Shown here: positions 1,525 to 53,440 of the stretch, one piece after another
Layout: every line of letters begins with the position of its first letter
Position numbering within the stretch: position 1 is the first letter of the stretch
Source of the DNA: Candidatus Doudnabacteria bacterium
GTDB taxonomy: Bacteria; Patescibacteriota; Doudnabacteria; UBA920
Assembly: GCA_963768175.1 (NCBI GenBank)
Contig: CAVYGQ010000001.1
Location: forward strand, 100,481-164,480
Direction of reading: 5' to 3'
DNA: 64,000 nucleotides
Made by a program: the position numbers and the translations under genes
The notes under the pieces: model-generated
The model's database searches: none
Seen by the model: only the letters and a program-made list of their open reading frames with translations
What the model was told of the DNA's origin: nothing

Positions 1525-3408
1525 ATGCCTAAAATTTGGAAAGTAAAAACCAAAATTCCCGATGACATCGCGCAAAATTTATCGGAGTATCCGGAACTTT
1601 TGCGGCAGCTGTTTTTTAATCGTGGATTGACGGGAAAAGACCAAATTCAGGATTTTTTGGAGCCAAAATACGAAAATCTATACAGCCCGTTTTTGTTTAA
1701 AGATATGGAAAAGGCGGTGGAGCGGATTTGGCAGGCAATTGACCGGAGTGAAAAAATTTGTATTTATGGCGACTATGATGCCGACGCGATTACTGCCAAC
1801 GCGGTGCTGGCGCAGACGTTTAAATATTTAGGCGTTGAGATTTTATCGTACATCCCTGACAGGTTTACCGAAGGATACGGCATTAATATCGATGCTCTGT
1901 TAAAGATAAAGGATGAAGGATCAAAGATAATCATAACCGTTGATTGCGGCACTAATTCCGCTGACGCGGCAGAGTTTTGCAAAAAAAATAATATCGATCT
2001 AATTATTACCGACCATCATGAAATCATCGGAGAGGTTCCTGATGCTTACGCGCTGATAAATCCCAAAAATCCCGATGACAATTATCTATACCGCGATATT
2101 ACGGGAGTCGGGGTGGCATTTAAGCTGGCTTGCGGGATTTTATCAAAACGTGAAAAAATTATCGCGCGTTTTGAACCCTCACCCCTAGCCCCTCTCCCAA
2201 AGGGGGAGGGGAAGCCCGGAGTTGTGGGATGGGAAAAGTGGCTGCTTGATTTGGTGGCCATCGGCACGGTGGCGGATTGCCACAGCCTACTGGGGGAGAA
2301 TCGGATATTAGTAAAGTATGGTTTAAAAGTTTTGGCCAAGACGAAGTGGATTGGTTTACGCGCGTTGATGGAATCCGCGGGTTTGGCAGAGGTGTCCCCT
2401 CTGCAGCAGAGGGGACACCTCTGCCCGTTGAAGCCGCTTGATACCTATACCCTAGGCTTTATCATCGCGCCGAGATTAAACGCGGCGGGCAGGCTGGAGC
2501 ATGCCGGCATTGCTTTGGATCTATTGCTGGAAACCGATGCCAATCGCGCAAACGAAAAAGCCCGCAAACTGGAAGCCATAAATACGCGCCGGCAGGGGCT
2601 GACTGCGGAGGTGTTAAGCGAGGCCAAGGAAAAGGTCTTATTGCTTAAGGAAAGAAAAGTTTTGGCACTTGTAGGTGAAGGTTGGCCCAAAGGCGTAATG
2701 GGCCTGGTCGCCGGTAAATTGGCCGAGGAATTTTATAAGCCTACGATTGTGTTGGAAAAAACGGAGAATTTATGCACTGGTTCGGCCAGAACCGCCGGCA
2801 AGTTTGATATTTTGGAGGCTTTAAAGTTTTCTTCCGAGCATTTGTCCAAATTTGGCGGCCATAAACAGGCCGCTGGTTTGAGTTTAGAGGCCAATAAATT
2901 TGACCTTTTTTACCAGAAACTATTGGAATATGCCGAGGTAAAAATTGCGCCGGAATCGGCACAAAAAGCCCTTGAGCTGGAAGCAAAACTTGAGGGTCAT
3001 GACCTAATACCTAACACCTATAACCTAATATCTAAACTCCAGCCATTCGGCGTGGACAATCCCACTCCAAAATTTTTAGTTTCCAATCTTGAAGTTTCAT
3101 CAATCCGCATGGTCGGCAAGCAAACCCAGCATTTGCAGGTGAGATTTATATTGCCTTTTCGGCGTCATTCTGACCCTGAGCGGAGCGAAGGGGAAGAATC
3201 TCAATCAAAAGGAGAGATCCTTCGCTCCGCTCAGGATGACGCCGGGGTGAGTGGCAGGGAAATCGCCGGTATTATGTTTAATGCGCCGGATTTTGCCAAA
3301 ACTTTGAAAATCGGCGATACTGTAGATGTCGCGGCAGAGTTAATTGAGGACGGGTGGAACGGGAAGAGGGAAGTGAAGTTGCGCATCGTAGACCTAAAAA
3401 TTATCTAA
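1525..3408 (+). CDS. recJ: Single-stranded-DNA-specific exonuclease RecJ (DHH/DHHA1), with three in-frame palindromic insertions
   Basis: The DHH motifs (ICIYGDYDADAITA, IITDHH) and a DHHA1 region with an OB-fold C-terminus are present. Extra peptide segments are encoded by palindromes at 2189-2211, 2387-2423 and 3160-3247. Confidence 0.9.
   Translation: MPKIWKVKTKIPDDIAQNLSEYPELLRQLFFNRGLTGKDQIQDFLEPKYENLYSPFLFKDMEKAVERIWQAIDRSEKICIYGDYDADAITANAVLAQTFKYLGVEILSYIPDRFTEGYGINIDALLKIKDEGSKIIITVDCGTNSADAAEFCKKNNIDLIITDHHEIIGEVPDAYALINPKNPDDNYLYRDITGVGVAFKLACGILSKREKIIARFEPSPLAPLPKGEGKPGVVGWEKWLLDLVAIGTVADCHSLLGENRILVKYGLKVLAKTKWIGLRALMESAGLAEVSPLQQRGHLCPLKPLDTYTLGFIIAPRLNAAGRLEHAGIALDLLLETDANRANEKARKLEAINTRRQGLTAEVLSEAKEKVLLLKERKVLALVGEGWPKGVMGLVAGKLAEEFYKPTIVLEKTENLCTGSARTAGKFDILEALKFSSEHLSKFGGHKQAAGLSLEANKFDLFYQKLLEYAEVKIAPESAQKALELEAKLEGHDLIPNTYNLISKLQPFGVDNPTPKFLVSNLEVSSIRMVGKQTQHLQVRFILPFRRHSDPERSEGEESQSKGEILRSAQDDAGVSGREIAGIMFNAPDFAKTLKIGDTVDVAAELIEDGWNGKREVKLRIVDLKII
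3160..3247. repeat. Family-1 palindromic element inserted in-frame in recJ
   Basis: ggcgtcattctgaccctgagcggagcgaagg ... ccttcgctccgctcaggatgacgcc encodes FRRHSDPERSEGEESQSKGEILRSAQDDAG without interrupting the ORF. Confidence 0.8.
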
Positions 3409-3483
3409 ACATCTAAACATATAAACATTTAAGCATTCAGTAGTTGCTTATATGTTTGCATGTTTAAATGTTAATATGTTTAT

Positions 3484-3885
3484 ATGAAACTTATCATCAA
3501 CACCGACGGCGGGGCGCGCGGTAATCCCGGGCCGGCGGGGATTGGCGTTGTAATTGCCGATGGCGTTGGGCATATCATCAGCCGCCACAAAAAATATATC
3601 GGCGAAGCGACCAATAACGTAGCGGAATATAAGGCCTTGATTTTGGCGTTAAAGGAAGCGCACAAGCTCAAAACTGATCAACTGTTGGTAAATATGGATA
3701 GCGAACTAATAGTCCGGCAAATGCAGGGCAGGTATAAAATAAAAGAGCTGTCGCTCAAGCTTTTGGCGGCGGAAGCGTTAAAACTCATCAGCCAATTTAA
3801 AAACGTGATTTTCCATCACGTCCCCAGAGAACAAAATAAGGAAGCGGATAAACTGGTAAACGAGGCGATAGATAAAGTTATCTAA
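3484..3885 (+). CDS. rnhA: RNase H family protein (type 1 RNase H-like)
   Basis: The translation carries the DGGARGNPGPAGIG..EATNNVAEYKALILAL pattern of the RNase HI fold with DEDD catalytic residues. Its size (133 aa) is consistent. Confidence 0.7.
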   Translation: MKLIINTDGGARGNPGPAGIGVVIADGVGHIISRHKKYIGEATNNVAEYKALILALKEAHKLKTDQLLVNMDSELIVRQMQGRYKIKELSLKLLAAEALKLISQFKNVIFHHVPREQNKEADKLVNEAIDKVI

Positions 3886-8245: not shown

Positions 8246-9643
8246 ATGCAATCCGTCATTATGCATCTGGACATGAATAGCTATTTTGCCTCTGTAGAAC
8301 AGCAGGATAATTTAGCCTGGCGTGGAAAGCCTGTGGGGGTATGCGAACATTTGGGAGGCATTATTATTGCGGCTTCGGTAGAGGCTAAGCGTTGGGGCAT
8401 TAAAACCGGCACGCCCGTCTGGGAAGCCCGCAAGCTTTACCCCAAAATTATCATTAGCCCCACGCATCCGGACCGTTACCGTTTTTTTAACCGCTCTATG
8501 GTTAAGGTTGTGTCCGATTACACTTCCGCCGTGGAGGTTTACAGCATAGACGAGGTTTTTGCGGATTTGACCAAGGCTTGCAATGTCCGTCTCTGCCGGC
8601 GTCATTCCGAGCGAGTGCATCCGAGCGAGGAATCTCTTATTAGGCTAAGTGTAAGAGATCCCTTGTCCTCGGATGCACTCGGACTCAGGATGACGCCTGG
8701 GGAGAGCATGGCCGACCCTTTTGAAGAAGCTGTAAACATCGCTAAGGAAATCAAGCGGCGGTTTAAGGCCGAAGTGGGAGACTGGCTAAGGTGCAGCATC
8801 GGCATCGCCGAAAATAAATTGCTGGCCAAAATCGGTTCGGATTTTAAAAAACCCGATGGACTAGTGGTTATAACCGACAAGGGGCATCCTTGTGCAGCAC
8901 AAGGATGCCCCTTGTGGCTTTCTAAAGACGATATATACGATCGTCTGCGTCTTACCGACATCCCCGGTATTGGCCGGCGCCAAGAGAATAATTTAAACCA
9001 ACTTGGCATTAAGACGCTTAAAGAATTACGTGATTTTCCCAAAAGCCATTTAGTTGCCAGGTTCGGCAACATTATGGGCCATCATTTGTATAATATCGGG
9101 CAATTGCAGGGAACTTGGAAAGCTCCCGTCCATCAGGAACAAGAAATTAAGTCCATGGGCCATATGTATACTTTGCCGCAGGAGTTCCGCCGGCCGGAAT
9201 TTTTTATGCCCGTTCTCTATAAATTATGCGAGATGGTCGGCCGGCGCCTGCGCAGGAAGAGTTTAATGGGCAACCTTATTTACTTTTATTGTCACGATAA
9301 AGATTATCAGGGATTCGGCAAAAGCGTTAAGCTTGGATATTTTGTGCAGGACGGCAGGGAAATATTTTTGGTTGCCGCGGATATATACGCGGATCTGTTA
9401 CGCGGATCTAAACGCGGAGCGTTGGGGGTAAAGCTCATCGGCGTTACCGTGGCAGGCCTTCGGCCTTATGTCCATCAGCTTAGTTTGTTTGGTGATGTTG
9501 AGCGGCGGCTTAAGGCGACAAAGGCCCTGGACAAGATTAACGACAAATACGGGGAATTTACCATTTTGCGCGCGCAAATGCTGCCGGCCGGCAAAGCCTT
9601 TGCCGATTCCATAGGTTTTGGCAGGGTAAAGGAGCTTGGGTAG
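8246..9643 (+). CDS. dinB: DNA polymerase IV (Y-family, DinB) with two in-frame palindromic insertions
   Basis: The translation shows HLDMNSYFASVE, the finger/palm motifs and a little-finger domain. Insertions are encoded at 8594-8698 (family 1) and 8879-8915 (a perfect palindrome). Confidence 0.9.
   Translation: MQSVIMHLDMNSYFASVEQQDNLAWRGKPVGVCEHLGGIIIAASVEAKRWGIKTGTPVWEARKLYPKIIISPTHPDRYRFFNRSMVKVVSDYTSAVEVYSIDEVFADLTKACNVRLCRRHSERVHPSEESLIRLSVRDPLSSDALGLRMTPGESMADPFEEAVNIAKEIKRRFKAEVGDWLRCSIGIAENKLLAKIGSDFKKPDGLVVITDKGHPCAAQGCPLWLSKDDIYDRLRLTDIPGIGRRQENNLNQLGIKTLKELRDFPKSHLVARFGNIMGHHLYNIGQLQGTWKAPVHQEQEIKSMGHMYTLPQEFRRPEFFMPVLYKLCEMVGRRLRRKSLMGNLIYFYCHDKDYQGFGKSVKLGYFVQDGREIFLVAADIYADLLRGSKRGALGVKLIGVTVAGLRPYVHQLSLFGDVERRLKATKALDKINDKYGEFTILRAQMLPAGKAFADSIGFGRVKELG
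8594..8698. repeat. Family-1 palindromic element inserted in-frame in dinB
   Basis: ggcgtcattccgagcgagtgcatccgagcgagg ... cctcggatgcactcggactcaggatgacgcc encodes CRRHSERVHPSEESLIRLSVRDPLSSDALGLRMTPG. Confidence 0.8.
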
Positions 9644-21085: not shown

Positions 21086-21706
21086 TTATGCGAACTGTTG
21101 CAACTGTCCTAAAATGGCCTGTTCCAGCTGAACAGTATCATAATGGCGTTGAGGCTTGATGTGTAAAATATTTAACTCTGAGGCTCTCAAAGCCCCGTCT
21201 AAAAAATCATCTCTTAATTTTCTATTGAAATAATTATGGGTATAATCATCCAGTTCAATAACCAAAAGTGGCGACAAATAAACTTTGTCAAAGATTACAA
21301 AATCTACTGTCTTTTTGTTTATCCTGTTAAAGTTGCTGTAAGTGGAATTTGTGCCGTATCTTTCCAGTCCGCCTTGGACTTCAATGATTCGGGATAAGGC
21401 AACCTGTGGCATAATAAAATACCTGTCCTTGATTATTTCCTGTAGCACTCCGAAAAACTTGTATTCGGTTTGGGTCATCAGGTATCGCTTTTTTCTGAAT
21501 GGATAAATTTTATCGTCTTTTTTTACTTCCTGAATTTTTGTATTGCCAGCATTACTAGGCGGTAAAGGTATCTCGGAATAATTTTGCTTTGAGCTTTTTA
21601 TGATGTAACTGGCAAGAATGATTATGATTATTAAACCAAATAAAAAATCCATAAATTTGCTTTTAGAAACACAAAGCCCCGGTCCAGCCGGGCTTTTACA
21701 CCCCAT
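21086..21706 (-). CDS. DUF2726-domain protein (NERD/restriction-endonuclease-like fold), membrane-anchored
   Basis: An N-terminal TM helix precedes the DUF2726 signature (TVDFVIFDKVYLSPLLVIELDDYTH ... RDDFLDGAL...LNILHIK). Confidence 0.55.
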   Translation of the reverse strand: MGCKSPAGPGLCVSKSKFMDFLFGLIIIIILASYIIKSSKQNYSEIPLPPSNAGNTKIQEVKKDDKIYPFRKKRYLMTQTEYKFFGVLQEIIKDRYFIMPQVALSRIIEVQGGLERYGTNSTYSNFNRINKKTVDFVIFDKVYLSPLLVIELDDYTHNYFNRKLRDDFLDGALRASELNILHIKPQRHYDTVQLEQAILGQLQQFA

Positions 21707-22000
21707 ACCCCTTTCGGGATATGACCATAAGACAGTAGCTGAACGCGGGGTTCAGTATGTCTTATGGTTTTACAGCCGTGCCTGATTAAAGGTTTAGGCC
21801 ATTCAGTTGTGATTAAATTATACCAAACTTGACAACAATTTTAAAGGGGTGTATGGTGGAGTTAGTTCATTAAAAAGTTAATAATTAAACGTAAGTTTTA
21901 TTTCTCCTCCCTCGGAGTAAGACAGGGGCTATGCCGTTTTGAACACAAAAACGGTGTGGCGTTTTGACCGCTTGTCTCAGCCATTAGAGGCCTTACAAAA

Positions 22001-28656: not shown

Positions 28657-29124
28657 GTGAGAGCTTTCTTAGTATTCTTGACATTGTTGGCCCCGACGAT
28701 GGCCAGCGCCCAGCAGGTGGACAAGATTCTGTTCTTCGGTCCGGGGTTTTCTTCGTCCTTGGCGAACGGTGCCAAAAGCGTCTCTGCCATCGGCGGAGCC
28801 AAGCTGGTCATCCACCTTGGCACCGGCGGCTGGTTCTCGCAGCTGTCCTGCTCCGCGAGTTTCGTGGAGCCGCAGATGACGGGAGCCAAGTCGTATTGGT
28901 CCATGCGACCGTCTGTCACTTTGGGTTACCGGTTCCGCAGCGGGAAAAGCCGATTCTCGGTTTTTGACGGGTTCGGCGAAACCCGCAACAAGGTTGGCGA
29001 TTTCCTGCCGACAGCAGTCGGCGGGGTGATTGTCAATCTCAAGGGTCGTTGGGGCGACCTCACTGACGTGAGCAGGAATGCTCAGTCGTGGGGGTTTTCC
29101 ACAACACTCGGCTACCGTTTTTAG
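28657..29124 (+). CDS. GC-rich signal-peptide protein resembling a small outer-membrane beta-barrel (C-terminal ...LGYRF)
   Basis: The gene is ~58-60% GC against a ~42% background. It has a signal peptide (MRAFLVFLTLLAPTMASAQQ), alternating hydrophobic beta-strand patterns and an aromatic C-terminal Phe. Confidence 0.45.
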   Translation: MRAFLVFLTLLAPTMASAQQVDKILFFGPGFSSSLANGAKSVSAIGGAKLVIHLGTGGWFSQLSCSASFVEPQMTGAKSYWSMRPSVTLGYRFRSGKSRFSVFDGFGETRNKVGDFLPTAVGGVIVNLKGRWGDLTDVSRNAQSWGFSTTLGYRF

Positions 29125-29225
29125 GAGGCCACTTTTATGTGGTACTCCGATGCATGAGGCGCGCGGATGCGACAATCCGCGCGTTTCAATCTTAAATTTG
29201 ACGGATTTTGGGGGGTTTGGTATAA

Positions 29226-29476
29226 TATCAGCAATTAAACCCCCACACCAATTTGATATAAATTTGTTAAGGGTTTAGCAAAATCCTCCAACCATTTCAA
29301 AATGAATTGGTGTGGGGGTAAACCAAAGACAGTTGGCCTCCGACTGAAACGTCGGAGTTAATTATCATCGCAAGATGATTGCCCACCGAGGAAGTGTAGC
29401 GCGCCCATTCATGGGCTGCAGCCGATAAATCGGCGCGCTACATCACACTCGGGTAAGCCCGAGTATTTTTGTTCGG
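29226..29476 (+). ncRNA. Candidate structured sRNA (promoter, five consecutive hairpins, intrinsic terminator); class unknown
   Basis: A TGGTATAAT -10 at 29217-29225 is followed by stems aaacccccacaccaatt/aattggtgtgggggtaaacc, ctccgac/gtcggag, atcatc-gcaa-gatgat and gtagcgcgcc/ggcgcgctac. The final stem cactcgggtaagcccgagtg is followed by atttttg. Confidence 0.3.
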
Positions 29477-29542
29477 CGTCATCCTGAACGAAGTGAAGGA
29501 TCTCATTAAAGAGATTCCTCGCTGCGCTCGGAATGACGCCGG
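29472..29542. repeat. Family-1 palindromic element in the rplJ leader region
   Basis: ttcggcgtcatcctgaacgaagtgaaggatctc ... gagattcctcgctgcgctcggaatgacgccgg. Confidence 0.8.
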
Positions 29543-29728
29543 TGAGAGTTGACGGATATTTATTGGTTCACCCTGTTAAATAATTCGCCAAAGGCGAATT
29601 GCCGCGAAGCGGCATTTAACAGGGACACCCTGTTAAATAATTTTTTAGTAAAAAATTACTGCGTAGCAGTATTTAACAGGGTAAAGGTCGATACTAGGCA
29701 CTTAGCACTTAGCACTAATAACTAACTT

Positions 29729-30244
29729 ATGCCAAAAGCTAAATCACAAAAGATTGAAGATCTTAAAGAACTTACGGCCAAACTTAAAGAGGCCAAAGGC
29801 GTGGTCTTTTCCGATTACCGCGGCACAACCGTAAAAGACATGGACATTTTCCGCAAAACCCTGCGCAAGGAAAAAGTCTTTTGCAAAGTCTACAAATTGA
29901 CTTTGGTTAAAAGGGCCATGAAAGATGCCGGCTTAGACGGAGAAATCGCCGACTATAAGACGCCGGTAATACTTTCGGTCTCCAGCGACGACGAAACCAC
30001 CCCCGCCCGTTTGGTCAAAAACTTGTCCAAAGACTTAAAGACTATTTCGGTTTTGGAAGGCATTGTGGACAACAAATTGGTCAACAAGGCGCAAGTTTTG
30101 GCTCTAGCCGACTTGCCGAGCAAAAACCAGCTGCGCGCGCAAATCATCGCCACCATCAATGCGCCGGTTACGGGATTTGTCAATGTTTTGGTTGGCAATA
30201 TCAGAGGCTTGATAAACGTGCTCAACGCAGTCGTAACTAAATAA
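29729..30244 (+). CDS. rplJ: 50S ribosomal protein L10
   Basis: The N-terminus KSQKIEDLKELTAKLKEAKGVVFSDYRGTTVKDM is typical of L10. Confidence 0.9.
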   Translation: MPKAKSQKIEDLKELTAKLKEAKGVVFSDYRGTTVKDMDIFRKTLRKEKVFCKVYKLTLVKRAMKDAGLDGEIADYKTPVILSVSSDDETTPARLVKNLSKDLKTISVLEGIVDNKLVNKAQVLALADLPSKNQLRAQIIATINAPVTGFVNVLVGNIRGLINVLNAVVTK

Positions 30245-30332
30245 TCATTTAAACATCAAAACATTTAAACATATAAACACGAGGCAGACGCTTAAATGCT
30301 TATATGATTAAATGTTTAAATGAAAGGAATAT

Positions 30333-30744
30333 TATGTCAGATGACAAACAAACGATAGAAGTTCCCGCAAAGTTTAAAGCTTTGGTGGAACAAATTGAAA
30401 AGCTTTCCGTTTTGGAGCTTTCAGAATTAGTTAAAGTTTTAGAAGGCAAGTTCGGCGTTTCGGCCGCCGCTCCCGCCATGATGACCCCGGCATTCGCCGG
30501 GGCAAGTGGGCCAGCTGCTGCTGCCGAGGAAAAGACCGAATTCAATGTGGAATTGACCGAAACCGGCGCGAGCAAAATTAATGTCATTAAAGTTGTCCGC
30601 GAAGTTACCGGCGTAGGGCTAAAGGAAGCCAAAGACTTAGTAGACGGCGCTCCTAAAATTGTCAAAGAAAATATGCCAAAAGCCGAAGCGGAAGCATTAA
30701 AGAAAAAGCTGGAAGACGCCGGCGCTAAAGTGACATTAAAATAA
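30333..30744 (+). CDS. rplL: 50S ribosomal protein L7/L12
   Basis: The translation has an Ala-rich hinge and a conserved C-terminal domain ([28 protein letters not shown]...). The ATG at 30333 is the preferred start. Confidence 0.92.
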
Positions 30745-30769
30745 TTTTTATTGCTATAAAATTATTTTA

Positions 30770-30870
30770 ATGTCATCTCGAGCGAGTGCATCCGAGCGAA
30801 GGATCCATTCTTTGATAATATAGCATTATTATTTCAAAGTCATCCCGAGGGCTTTAGCCCGAGGGATCTC
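30770..30870. repeat. Family-1-related palindromic elements (two units) downstream of rplL
   Basis: gtcatctcgagcgagtgcatccgagcgaaggatc and gtcatcccgagggctttagcccgagggatc are each hairpin-forming. A further unit lies at 30958-30995. Confidence 0.7.
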
Positions 30871-30902
30871 TTCTAAGATAATATCGATTAAAATTAAATA
30901 TT

Positions 30903-30936
30903 TAAAACCGCCCCCGTTGCAAGGGGACGGTTTTTA
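30903..30936 (+). terminator. Rho-independent terminator of the rplJL operon
   Basis: aaaaccgcccccgttgcaaggggacggttttt is a GC stem followed by a T-run. Confidence 0.8.
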
Positions 30937-31005
30937 ACTTAAAATGTATTATAAATAGATCCCTCGTCGCTTTGCTACTCGGGATGGCAGCTATAATGTA
31001 AATTT

Positions 31006-32094
31006 ATGTTTGTCAATTTTTGGCAACAATTAAATAAGCCCATTTTTTGCCTGGCGCCCATGGAAGGCGTTACGGACGTGGCTTTTAGGGAAATGTTTGC
31101 GAGATATAGCGGGAATGGTTCCCCCTCATCCGGTCCGCCTACTGGCGGGCCACCTTCTCCCTCAGGGAGAAGGTGTAATGAATTTGTTCTTTTTACGGAG
31201 TTCATTAACGTGGACGGATTAACGCATCCCGAAGGCCGGAAAAAATTGGAAATTGATTTAAAATATACGGGAAATCAGCGGCCGATAGTCGCCCAGTTGT
31301 GGGGCAGATCGCCGTTAAAATTTGAAGAAGCGGCCAAGATTATCGCTTCTTTAGGTTTTGACGGCATAGATATAAATATGGGCTGTCCGCAGGACAAAGA
31401 AATTAAAATCGGTGCCTGCGCCTCCCTTATTAAGGAACCCCAATTGGCCATGGAAATCATCAAGTTTACAAAAAAAGGGGCGGGAGATTTGCCGGTATCG
31501 GTCAAAACGCGTTTGGGATACAGCGAAAACATTATTGGCACGTGGCTCAGGCATTTGTTATCAGCTGGGCCCGCGGCCATAACTGTGCACGGCCGCACCA
31601 AGCAGGAAAAGTCCAAAGTTCTGGCCGACTGGGGGGCTATCGGTGAGGCGGTAGTAATTCGCGATGAGATGTTCCCTCAAAACCCTCACCCTTCACCCTC
31701 TCCCAGAGGGAGAGGGAAAGAAGTTGGCCTGCGGCCGCTAATAATCGGCAACGGCGACATTAAATCGCGGCAAGAGGGTTTACAGCGCGTTAAAGAGTCC
31801 GGAGTTGACGGGGTTATGGTAGGCAGGGGAGCGTTTGGCAATCCGTGGTTCTTTAGATTGGATAGTTATCAGCCAAATATAAAAGAGCGCCTGTCCGTTA
31901 TGCTGGAGCACGCCGAATTGTTTAACGATATTTTGGGCGGCCAAAAATCTTTCTTTATTATGCGCAAGCACTTTAAAGCCTACTGCTCAGGTTTCAACGG
32001 CGCCCATGAACTCCGCGCCAAACTTTTAAGTGCCAAAGATTTGGAAGAAACTAGATTGATAGTCAGCGAATACTTAAACTCCGCCCCGGTATAA
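31006..32094 (+). CDS. dus: tRNA-dihydrouridine synthase (Dus family) with two in-frame palindromic insertions
   Basis: The LAPMEGVTDVAFR start and a TIM-barrel FMN-binding core are present. Insertions encode GSPSSGPPTGGPPSPSGRR (palindrome ccttctccctcagggagaagg at 31163-31183) and PHPSPSPRGRGKE (ccctctcccagagggagaggg at 31695-31715). Confidence 0.85.
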   Translation: MFVNFWQQLNKPIFCLAPMEGVTDVAFREMFARYSGNGSPSSGPPTGGPPSPSGRRCNEFVLFTEFINVDGLTHPEGRKKLEIDLKYTGNQRPIVAQLWGRSPLKFEEAAKIIASLGFDGIDINMGCPQDKEIKIGACASLIKEPQLAMEIIKFTKKGAGDLPVSVKTRLGYSENIIGTWLRHLLSAGPAAITVHGRTKQEKSKVLADWGAIGEAVVIRDEMFPQNPHPSPSPRGRGKEVGLRPLIIGNGDIKSRQEGLQRVKESGVDGVMVGRGAFGNPWFFRLDSYQPNIKERLSVMLEHAELFNDILGGQKSFFIMRKHFKAYCSGFNGAHELRAKLLSAKDLEETRLIVSEYLNSAPV

Positions 32095-52521: not shown

Positions 52522-53376
52522 ATGGGCACTATTTTAATTCTAGGGTCGCAAGGCTTGCTAGGCGGGGAGTTTAAAAGGACTTTTTCGCGCGCTTTGGGTT
52601 GGGACAGAAAAGAAATCGATATTAGCGAGGCGGAAAGTTTGGAAAACAAAATTTTAGCGCTTGGGCAAAAGCCCGCCGCCATTATTAATTGCGCGGCATA
52701 TAATAACGTTGACGGCGCGGAAAAAGAAAAAGACAAAGCTTTTTTAATAAATGCCACGGCTGTGGGCAATTTGGCCAAGGTGTGCGGTAAATTGGATATT
52801 TTATTGGTGCATTTTTCGACTAATTACGTGTTTGACGGCGAAAAAGGCGAGTACGCGGAAATCGACCAGCCTAACCCCATATCCGTATATGGGCAGTCTA
52901 AATATGAAGGGGAAAAATTGCTGGAGGCAAACTGCTTGAGATACTATTTGATTCGGACTTCGGTTTTGTTTGGCCAGGAGGCGGAAAGCCCGTATGCGAA
53001 AAAGAGTTTTATAGAAGTTATGTTGGGTTTATCAGAAAAAACTGCTACAATTAAGGCAGTAAATGACGAAACCAACAGCCTGACCTATGCAGCCGATTTG
53101 GCCAAAGCCGTAGAGGATTTAATTGTTAAAAAGTTTTCTTACGGCATTTACCATATAATTAACAGTGGGCAAGCGTCTTGGTATGATTTTGCCAGGGAAA
53201 TTTTTAGCATCAGCGGCAAAAAAATTAATTTGGTTCCGGTAAAGTCTACGGAATTTTTGCGCCAAGCCAAGCGGCCGAAAAAAGCCGTCTTGCTGAATAC
53301 CAAACTGCCGCCGCTTCGGAGCTGGCAGGAAGCGCTGAAAGAATACTTGAATCAGGAATCAAGAAGTATGAATTAG
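52522..53376 (+). CDS. rmlD: dTDP-4-dehydrorhamnose reductase
   Basis: An ILGSQGLLGGE Rossmann motif is present, and the length and YxxxK are consistent with RmlD. Confidence 0.88.
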   Translation: MGTILILGSQGLLGGEFKRTFSRALGWDRKEIDISEAESLENKILALGQKPAAIINCAAYNNVDGAEKEKDKAFLINATAVGNLAKVCGKLDILLVHFSTNYVFDGEKGEYAEIDQPNPISVYGQSKYEGEKLLEANCLRYYLIRTSVLFGQEAESPYAKKSFIEVMLGLSEKTATIKAVNDETNSLTYAADLAKAVEDLIVKKFSYGIYHIINSGQASWYDFAREIFSISGKKINLVPVKSTEFLRQAKRPKKAVLLNTKLPPLRSWQEALKEYLNQESRSMN

Positions 53377-53381
53377 GGTCT

Positions 53382-53440
53382 CCTAATTCCTAATTCCTAA
53401 TTCCTAATTCCTAATTCCTAATTCCTAATTCCTAATTCCT
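53382..53440 (+). repeat. Heptanucleotide microsatellite (CCTAATT)x8 plus a partial unit, ending 5 nt before the rmlA start codon
   Basis: It is a perfect tandem repeat in the rmlD-rmlA intergenic spacer and replaces any recognisable RBS. Confidence 0.9.

Follow-up and report, generated by a model that had tools for sequence, protein, structure and literature searches.

The rplJ-rplL operon of a Candidatus Doudnabacteria bacterium was analyzed in a 64,000-nucleotide (nt) stretch of contig CAVYGQ010000001.1 (GenBank assembly GCA_963768175.1), referred to here as the window. The operon encodes ribosomal proteins L10 and L7/L12, and the gene order around it (DUF218, an extra open reading frame (ORF), leader, L10, L12, Dus) is a synteny common to relatives. 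The subject of this work is the leader, which consists of a promoter-to-terminator unit at 29198-29473 and a 257-nt linker that extends to the rplJ ATG. The leader promoter has 11 of 12 matching hexamer positions plus the TG extension, and its elements TTGACGGATTTT...TATAAT are kept at the same place in the related loci L001, L017, L018, and L089. The predicted fold of 29228-29472 has a free energy of -101 kcal/mol (z = -9.3), which none of 200 shuffled sequences matched, and the fold of the whole 513-nt 5' untranslated region (UTR) has z = -12.2. A first-pass annotation of this DNA had placed a promoter at 29217-29225, five consecutive stem-loops, and an intrinsic terminator at 29452-29476 in this region. 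All of the listed leader features are in the sequence, displaced from their earlier coordinates by 1-5 nt. The promoter is off by one (29218-29226), the stem-loops are located at 29239-29319, 29338-29357 (P2), 29364-29379 (P3), 29395-29442, and 29447-29464, and the last of these is the terminator stem, with its tail running to 29473. The same annotation had noted that rplK-rplA is not upstream, and neither gene lies within about 3 kb 5' of the leader.

Related leaders were collected by a scan with the L10 protein, which gave 7 genome loci and 80 metagenome loci; four more loci came from exact-protein look-ups. The genome loci are all metagenome-assembled and comprise four Candidatus Saccharibacteria, one Patescibacteria group, one Candidatus Peregrinibacteria, and one unclassified uncultured bacterium. 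The closest usable relatives that were aligned are L001 (85% L10 identity), L089 (78%), L090 (75%), L017, and L018. L088 has 91% L10 identity, and it is unusable as the closest relative because its contig ends 33 nt 5' of rplJ. About 35 loci with at least 50% L10 identity have invariant blocks upstream of rplJ in a fixed order. The blocks are the promoter, (G)UUAAAUAUCC-NNN-GACAGUUGG, hairpin P2, (U)UAAU, hairpin P3, GCCCACCGAGGAA, a variable hairpin, ACUCGG...CCGAG with a U-tract, GGAUAUUUAA, AAAGGUCGA, a variable spacer, and AUG. Compared to the closest usable relatives, the window has three blocks of its own: an 81-nt hairpin, a 68-nt palindrome, and two 57-nt units.

A covariance model was used to locate the conserved domain that contains P1, P2, and P3. 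A MAFFT alignment was structurally inconsistent in P2 and P3, and it was replaced by a seed of six relatives with a hand-written P1/P2/P3 structure. The resulting model, R1, excluded the window, and the relatives were re-aligned with it. R1 matches the window at 29317-29393 with 63.8 bits (E = 2e-13), the sole significant match in 64 kb (next E ~1), and the domain lies 336-406 nt 5' of the rplJ ATG on the same strand. Searching 88 sources (the window and 87 loci) gave 43 matches, all on the plus strand; 42 of them are in related loci upstream of rplJ, and they extend to distant lineages at 35-43% L10 identity. The GACAGNNGG core is found 91-312 nt 5' of rplJ in all 34 loci that have it. Covariation was measured in 39 distinct homologues, where 90.9% of the cells are paired compared to 64.1% in shuffled alignments, and none of 500 shuffles reach this value. 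The covariation score is 0.532 compared to 0.158 for the shuffles; because much of the set is interrelated, shuffling exaggerates the significance, and the fairer slid controls (at most 0.075) still support the structure. All 16 pairs of the R1 alignment have compensatory changes on both sides. Folding without reference to that alignment predicts exactly two hairpins between the P1 strands in 30 of 30 relatives, whose sequences there are unrelated. The homology and the covariation are computational results.

The features of L10(L12)4 sites in the literature are a kink-turn, a non-canonical or bulged C above it, an unpaired UAA, and a second hairpin of variable length (PMC3616713, PMC4538822). 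The window element carries them all, the kink-turn as a sequence signature. The segments CC-NNN-GACAG(U/C)UGG, the (U)UAAU junction, and CC(C/U)(A/G)(C/U)CGAGGA show little or no variation among 30 relatives, and the invariance of GACAG and CGAGGA among these relatives points to a kink-turn by its sequence signature. Most of the 30 relatives retain the UAA, with the consensus (N)UAAU, and TAAT is invariant in one alignment. The C position is represented by an extra C (29387) between P1 and GA, and a U-C opposition occurs inside P1 in 32 of 39 homologues.

The domain is followed by two alternative structures with which it shares sequence. CCGAG is common to the P1/kink-turn strand and the antiterminator, and CUCGG is common to the antiterminator and the 5' arm of the terminator, where its partner is CCCGAG (29458-63). 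The window antiterminator is predicted to form 5 of 5 closing pairs (-40.3 kcal/mol), and 29 of 30 relatives are predicted to form at least 4 of 5. All 30 relatives have the homologous terminator hairpin, followed by a T-rich tail with 6-9 T per 10 nt. The minimum-energy fold computed for the unliganded 5' UTR corresponds to the antiterminator state. By prediction, the anti-antiterminator, antiterminator, and terminator with U-tract are mutually exclusive, and this exclusivity was obtained computationally like the homology and covariation above. A promoter scan found no promoter-like site between the terminator and the rplJ ATG, so rplJL expression must come from read-through. A second rplJ promoter at the duplicated TTGACGGAT (29549) was considered and rejected; there is no -10 box at a usable spacing, and no site was reported. 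These data make it very probable that 29198-29473 is a divergent L10(L12)4 autoregulatory leader of the rplJ-rplL operon that works as a transcription attenuator. The coordinates of its parts are collected in Table 1.

Table 1. Predicted features of the leader and the genes it precedes, in window coordinates.
Feature	Position	Strand	Basis or details
GC-rich hairpin 3' of the stop codon of ORF 28657-29124	29155-29188	+	inverted repeat, 14-nt arms, 86% complementary
Sigma-70-type rplJL leader promoter	29198-29226	+	-35 TTGACG 29198-29203; 17-nt spacer; extended -10 TGGTATAAT (TGgTATAAT) 29218-29226
81-nt 5' hairpin, between transcription start and L10 site	29239-29319	+	ACCCCCACACCAATT.../...AATTGGTGTGGGGGT; predicted inverted repeat/fold
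L10(L12)4-binding domain (anti-antiterminator)	29323-29393	+	covariance model, covariation, published features
Kink-turn	CC 29323-24, AAA bulge 29325-27, GA 29328-29; C 29387, GA 29388-89, GG 29390-91		
Binding domain P1	29332-37 with 29381-86		
Binding domain P2	29338-57		
Unpaired UAA junction between P2 and P3	29358-63		TTAATT
Binding domain P3	29364-79		
Antiterminator	29386-29452	+	folding; CCGAG 29386-90 with CUCGG 29448-52, closing long hairpin 29395-29442
Intrinsic terminator	29447-29473	+	fold and terminator scan; stem ACTCGGG/CCCGAGT, loop TAAG, tail ATTTTTGTT
Dispersed palindromic element copy, between terminator tail and rest of leader	29474-29541	.	68-nt imperfect palindrome CGGCGTCATCCTGAA...TTCGGAATGACGCCG
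Conserved post-terminator segment GGATATTTATTGG (P0 3' strand in relatives)	29554-29566	+	sequence comparison
Three-way-junction unit 1	29570-29625	+	P1 CCCUGUUAAAU/AUUUAACAGGG, P2 AAUUCGCC-AAA-GGCGAAUU, P3 GCCGC-GAA-GCGGC
Three-way-junction unit 2, tandem	29627-29682	+	same P1 arms; P2 AAUUUUUU-AGU-AAAAAAUU, P3 ACUGC-GUA-GCAGU
Three-way-junction units, sequence pattern			CCCNGTTAAAT...ATTTAACNGGG
Conserved AAAGGUCGA box	29683-29691	+	upstream-region motif counts
G-poor ACUA-rich spacer	29692-29728	+	read from sequence; CACTTAG ~2.4x at 29699-29715
rplJ (ribosomal protein L10, 171 amino acids), regulated gene	29729-30244	+	Pfam PF00466, E 2.2e-16
rplL (ribosomal protein L7/L12), operon gene 2	30334-30744	+	Pfam PF00542 and PF16320

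In the B. subtilis rplJL system, L10(L12)4 was shown experimentally to stabilize the anti-antiterminator and promote termination (Yakhnin et al. 2015, PMC4538822). By analogy with that system, protein binding, termination, and read-through would proceed in the window as follows. Transcription would start a few nt 3' of the TGGTATAAT box. Past the 81-nt hairpin, the RNA would form a mimic of the L10(L12)4 site in helix 42 of 23S ribosomal RNA (rRNA), built from the kink-turn, helix P1, hairpin P2, the unpaired UAA junction, and hairpin P3. When free L10(L12)4 is scarce, CCGAG would pair with CUCGG, the antiterminator would form, and RNA polymerase would read into rplJ-rplL. When L10(L12)4 is in excess, it would bind and hold the anti-antiterminator, leaving CUCGG free for CCCGAG; the terminator would then form, and transcription would stop at the T-tract near 29473. 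The short promoter-to-terminator RNA would be the attenuated leader and not the product of a separate gene.

The window leader resembles RF00557 and the B. subtilis rplJL attenuator in its location directly upstream of rplJ-rplL and in the succession of a kink-turn and a helix in which a C position is non-canonical or bulged. As in B. subtilis, the anti-antiterminator, antiterminator, and terminator overlap, with about 5 nt common to each overlap, and the terminator has a U-rich tail. The B. subtilis leader also has a leader peptide, which counteracts Rho-dependent termination, whereas none is seen in the window leader. The small ORFs tried for this role (29078-29278 and 29549-29725) are not conserved in relatives, and no conserved leader ORF was found; the sole ORF, 29549-29725 (58 amino acids, TTG start), spans inserted units that have no counterpart in relatives. 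Unlike B. subtilis and RF00557, the clade has a long-range helix, P0, that encloses the whole attenuator, and a AAAGGUCGA box. The window also differs from known L10 leader systems in lacking rplK-rplA upstream, and it additionally contains the 81-nt 5' hairpin plus some 195 nt of palindromic and three-way-junction insertions. The E. coli rplJ leader uses the same recognition principle, a mimic of 23S rRNA helix 42 far 5' of the start codon. Control there is post-transcriptional via long-range leader folding, whereas the canonical terminator and antiterminator in the window point to attenuation. A translational layer in the window leader is a conjecture.

The segment between terminator and ATG appears to be an ancestral short linker (GGAUAUUUAU... 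AAAGGUCGA... ACUA-rich spacer) that was expanded by insertions; lineage-specific insertions make up most of its 257 nt. Similar ACUA-rich spacers are found in L001, L022, L023, L025, L029, and L090, and the window sequence has no Shine-Dalgarno sequence next to the rplJ ATG. We read the 81-nt hairpin, the palindrome, and the 57-nt units as insertions or expansions in a tolerant linker. The palindrome and the units are most probably tolerated as structured spacers; a function of the units, whose pairing is kept, is conceivable. The 81-nt 5' hairpin is, judging by the alignments, lineage-specific. It is missing in L002, L003, L018, and L090, where the -10 box is about 20 nt from GACAG, and other hairpins occupy its site in L001, L017, L019, L026, and L089. 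The hairpin takes the place of AUAU in the usual AAAUAUCC, and its arm sequence occurs once in the window. Its 3' arm UUGGUGUGGGGGU (29307-29319) recurs in L025 at 66-76, directly 5' of the AAAGGUCGA box, with no local partner within the 65 nt available. This recurrence is a hint that the leader's two UAAA-flanked sites exchange hairpin arms, or that such arms pair at long range.

The 68-nt palindrome, which the first-pass annotation had called a family-1 palindromic element, is confirmed, and the window contains it three more times. The copies (1430-1511, 3160-3244, 8597-8698, and 29474-29541; at least 4 in 64 kb) are 68-102 nt long and have the consensus CGGCGTCATyCyGAr...GGATCTC / GAGATyC...yTCrGrATGACGCCG. 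The element resembles repetitive extragenic palindromic (REP) sequences and miniature inverted-repeat transposable elements (MITEs) in that it is palindromic, dispersed, missing at the orthologous site (L001, L017, L018, L089, and L090), and the site of a break in a short-read assembly. It is unlike the named REP/MITE families in that no named family matched and two copies lie inside long ORFs. These are the copies at 3160 and 8597, inside ORFs 1525-3408 and 8246-9643, and they are either in-frame insertions or the product of over-long ORF calls.

Each of the two 57-nt units is predicted to fold as a perfect three-way junction, unit 1 at -30.8 kcal/mol (z = -7.9) and unit 2 at -19.1 kcal/mol (z = -5.1). 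In the predicted fold of both, the two-junction arrangement (-50.7 kcal/mol) and a five-way arrangement (-53.5 kcal/mol) are nearly isoenergetic. The units are bounded by CCCTGTTAAAT arms, of which the window has exactly four in alternating orientation. They are inserted between GGAUAUUUAUUGG and AAAGGUCGA and are missing in L001 and L090. L026 (60% L10 identity) has a single homologous unit at the same site with a different P2 and P3 and the same architecture; at the 5' site, a simpler CCCAGUUAAAU...AUUUAACGGG hairpin is found in L019 and L026. Two unrelated hairpins occupy the unit site in L018 and L089, and many relatives have hairpins between the box and AUG. L092, an independently made assembly of this genome, matches window 29511-31244 with 100% identity, which rules out that the tandem units were introduced by the assembly of this record. 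Two other readings of the arms were rejected. The four CCCTGTTAAAT half-sites do not fit a DNA operator, since the sequences between the arms keep their hairpin pairing through compensatory changes. The arms also fit RYYYAAC/GTTRRRY, which we take to be the R-box pattern of integron attC sites; they derive from native leader sequence, and there is no cassette context.

Helix P0 joins the two ends of the attenuator in the relatives. Most of the 30 relatives compared can pair the transcript 5' end (G)UUAAAUAUCC with GGAUAUUUAA(C) just 3' of the terminator, and in 28 of the 30 this duplex stops precisely at the kink-turn bulge. Compensatory variants are AUACC/GGUAU in L010, CUAC-A-UAUC/GAUAGUAG in L003-L006 and L039, and CUUAAUAUCC/GGGUGUUAAG in L016; L028 has one also. 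P0 uses the same UCC that pairs with GGA in the kink-turn C-stem, and hence it could remodel the L10 site in the read-through RNA; it could also protect the 5' end. A replacement P0 in the window, GGGUAAACCAA (29316-26) with UUGGUUCACCC (29563-73), has 10 of 11 positions paired and was rejected, as it does no better than shuffled sequences (z = -1.0) and stronger local stems compete with it. The unit arms CCCUGUUAAAUA/UAUUUAACAGGG are similar to both strands of P0, as if copied from them, and the 3' arm aligns with the ancestral ...AUAUUUAACAG-UAAAGGUCGA in L020 and L034.

The AAAGGUCGA box was assessed by motif counts. Of 79 distinct L10 upstream regions, 43 contain AAAGGTCG (AAAGGUCG) and 44 contain the 7-mer AAGGTCG, whose background is about 0.01 per 140 nt; the box consensus is UAAAGGUCGAA. 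The box is not a general motif of the window, where it has 2 matches, the chance expectation. In the window clade it lies 21-123 nt 5' of AUG. It also occurs in lineages at 35-43% L10 identity, there sometimes at Shine-Dalgarno distance from AUG. In distant CPR lineages, the UAAAGGUCGAA box is likewise kept 3' of the leader terminator (L043, L045, L046, L052, L061, L062, L065, L066, L069, L071, and L073). Its GGUCGA presumably matches the 3' strand of 23S helix 42. In L061, L062, L066, L069, L070, and L073, a UCGACCU complementary to the box is located just 5' of the terminator, which suggests a possible sequestration of the Shine-Dalgarno-like site in distant lineages. A universal pairing partner of the box was rejected because the partner varies, being the P1 5' strand GUUGGC with wobbles in some leaders and UCGACCU in the distant lineages.

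The comparison with Rfam gave a different outcome from R1. RF00557 aligns end to end with the orthologous regions of L002-L006, scoring 28.6-34.7 bits. It does not match the window at the gathering threshold (whole window), at E<=10 (1 kb), or in a 191-nt slice, and the Rfam searches of the leader gave chance-level matches only (mir-1677, Gut-1 on the minus strand, and Pseudomon-groES). The divergence of the leader and the number of hairpin elements inserted into it place it beyond detection by Rfam. The Rfam score is the one measure tested that leaves it outside the L10 leader family; by its features it belongs there. Several points weigh against the assignment as an L10 attenuator. The RF00557 gathering threshold of 44 bits is not reached in any relative, the window has no match at all, and family membership accordingly rests on our own covariance model and the match of features. 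The relatedness of the homologues, which inflates the shuffle statistics, belongs here as well. Transcript ends and read-through are predictions from sequence. The kink-turn C-stem of the window is 2 bp (CC/GG) compared to 3 bp (UCC/GGA) in most relatives, and the window has lost the P0 5' strand AAAUAUCC, by which its copy may be regulated less tightly. Finally, the two units differ by six base-pair changes that are all compensatory and disrupt no pair, which argues against merely neutral filler.

The first-pass annotation had offered an independent small RNA (sRNA), a divergent L10 leader, or both for this region. The L10 leader holds, for the promoter-to-terminator unit that had been proposed as the sRNA and not for the nested CCCTGTTAAATA hairpins. 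The nested hairpins and the palindromic element are present as described, they lack the L10-site signature, and they are insertions compared to L001 and L090. An independent trans-acting sRNA gene that lies upstream of rplJ by chance would account for the strong promoter, the canonical intrinsic terminator, a fold far better than shuffles, and the failure of Rfam to recognize the unit as a leader. It is nevertheless highly improbable. The homologous elements are always directly upstream of rplJ on the same strand, so the unit, in spite of its own promoter and terminator, does not look conserved independently of the downstream gene. The unit bears the L10-site mimic, its terminator belongs to a switch in which it overlaps the antiterminator and the antiterminator overlaps the binding site, and rplJ has no promoter-like site of its own. 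A secondary trans role of the terminated leader is conceivable, and nothing points to one. Of the checks that the annotation had suggested, covariation in relatives is strong (16 of 16 pairs, 39 homologues), whereas cmscan against Rfam does not find RF00557 and would be a false negative for an L10 leader.

For the 57-nt units, a MITE-like element with CCCTGTTAAAT terminal inverted repeats that was inserted twice would explain the tandem arrangement and the patchy distribution, with units in the window and L026 and not in closer relatives, and the likeness of the arms to attC R-boxes is in line with it. This origin is improbable, because the units are confined to L10 leaders, neither the rest of the 64-kb window nor about 340 kb of related loci yielding further copies, and their 3' arm and flanks are homologous to native leader sequence. 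A scan of viral contigs gave four isolated single 17-mer matches, compatible with chance, and no association with a transposase or integrase was seen, although no search aimed at integrase was run. The neighboring 29474-29541, by contrast, does behave as a dispersed repeat. A function is somewhat easier to entertain. The post-terminator region (the units, the GGAUAUUU segment, and the AAAGGUCGA box) may tentatively be viewed as a second regulatory or stabilizing module on the read-through mRNA, in which the units replace the ancestral P0 by pairing its 3'-strand-like sequence locally. The presence of P0 in most relatives with compensatory variants, the occurrence of the box in L10 upstream regions across distant lineages, the likeness of the unit arms to the P0 strands, and the restriction of the units to L10 leaders (window and L026, with the simpler hairpins in L019 and L026) are consistent with such a module, as are the six compensatory changes and the conserved architecture of L026 with its different P2 and P3. 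Perfect hairpins can arise in one step by template switching, however, and compensatory differences need not mean selection. The closest relatives L001 and L090 lack the units, other relatives bear unrelated hairpins at this and neighboring sites, the genome is rich in intergenic palindromes (72 hairpin-type inverted repeats in the 64-kb window), and no partner or ligand was identified, which together leave a second module doubtful. More speculative still is the idea that the L10 leaders of the clade are two-checkpoint regulators that combine a Bacillus-type attenuator, P0 competing for the kink-turn C-stem, and the UAAAGGUCGAA box. If this were true, P0 and the box would give L10-dependent control of the translation or stability of the read-through mRNA, and the P0 of this genome would have been converted into local three-way-junction hairpins made from copies of its own strands.

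The mechanism of the L10 leader attenuator is known; what is new is a divergent, repeat-decorated L10 leader from a phylum that has received little study. Rfam misses a ribosomal autoregulatory RNA that is widely conserved in the ultra-small genomes of the candidate phyla radiation (CPR)/Patescibacteria, and therefore RNA-family surveys of these organisms under-count regulatory RNAs. R1 recovers the element across dozens of uncultured lineages. Where a strong promoter and then an intrinsic terminator precede a ribosomal protein gene, the first interpretation should be an attenuator and not an sRNA. The window also shows palindromic insertions piling up in the tolerant linker of an essential operon's leader, and the clade-specific P0 helix and AAAGGUCGA box are a possible second regulatory layer.

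The genes nearest 5' of the leader encode a CMAS-type methyltransferase, a DUF218 protein, and a 155-amino acid ORF (28657-29124, plus strand). This ORF has a signal-peptide-like N terminus and no Pfam match. It separates the DUF218 gene from the L10 leader, two features that are directly adjacent in L018 and L090. The hairpin at 29155-29188 is probably the terminator of the upstream gene, and its sequence ...CCGCGCG(C)TTCAAATCTT... is also found 5' of the promoter in L017. The L092 contig starts at window 29511, within the palindromic element, and the ends of the L088 and L092 contigs in the rplJ leader, from two independent short-read assemblies, are consistent with repeat-induced contig breaks. 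The scan for transfer RNAs (tRNAs) and transfer-messenger RNAs found none in the leader region. The sole non-tRNA Rfam family in the window is LOOT RNA (RF03000) at 21690-21800 on the minus strand, with 70.3 bits compared to a gathering score of 46.4. The rplJ-rplL spacer (30245-30323) is a near-palindrome of about 79 nt made of 8-nt AAACAT-type periods. It is akin to 3399-3487, with both orientations represented, and the two may be a second palindromic repeat family. A tandem repeat of TCCTAAT (about 8 copies) at 53349-53440 adjoins a complementary arm.

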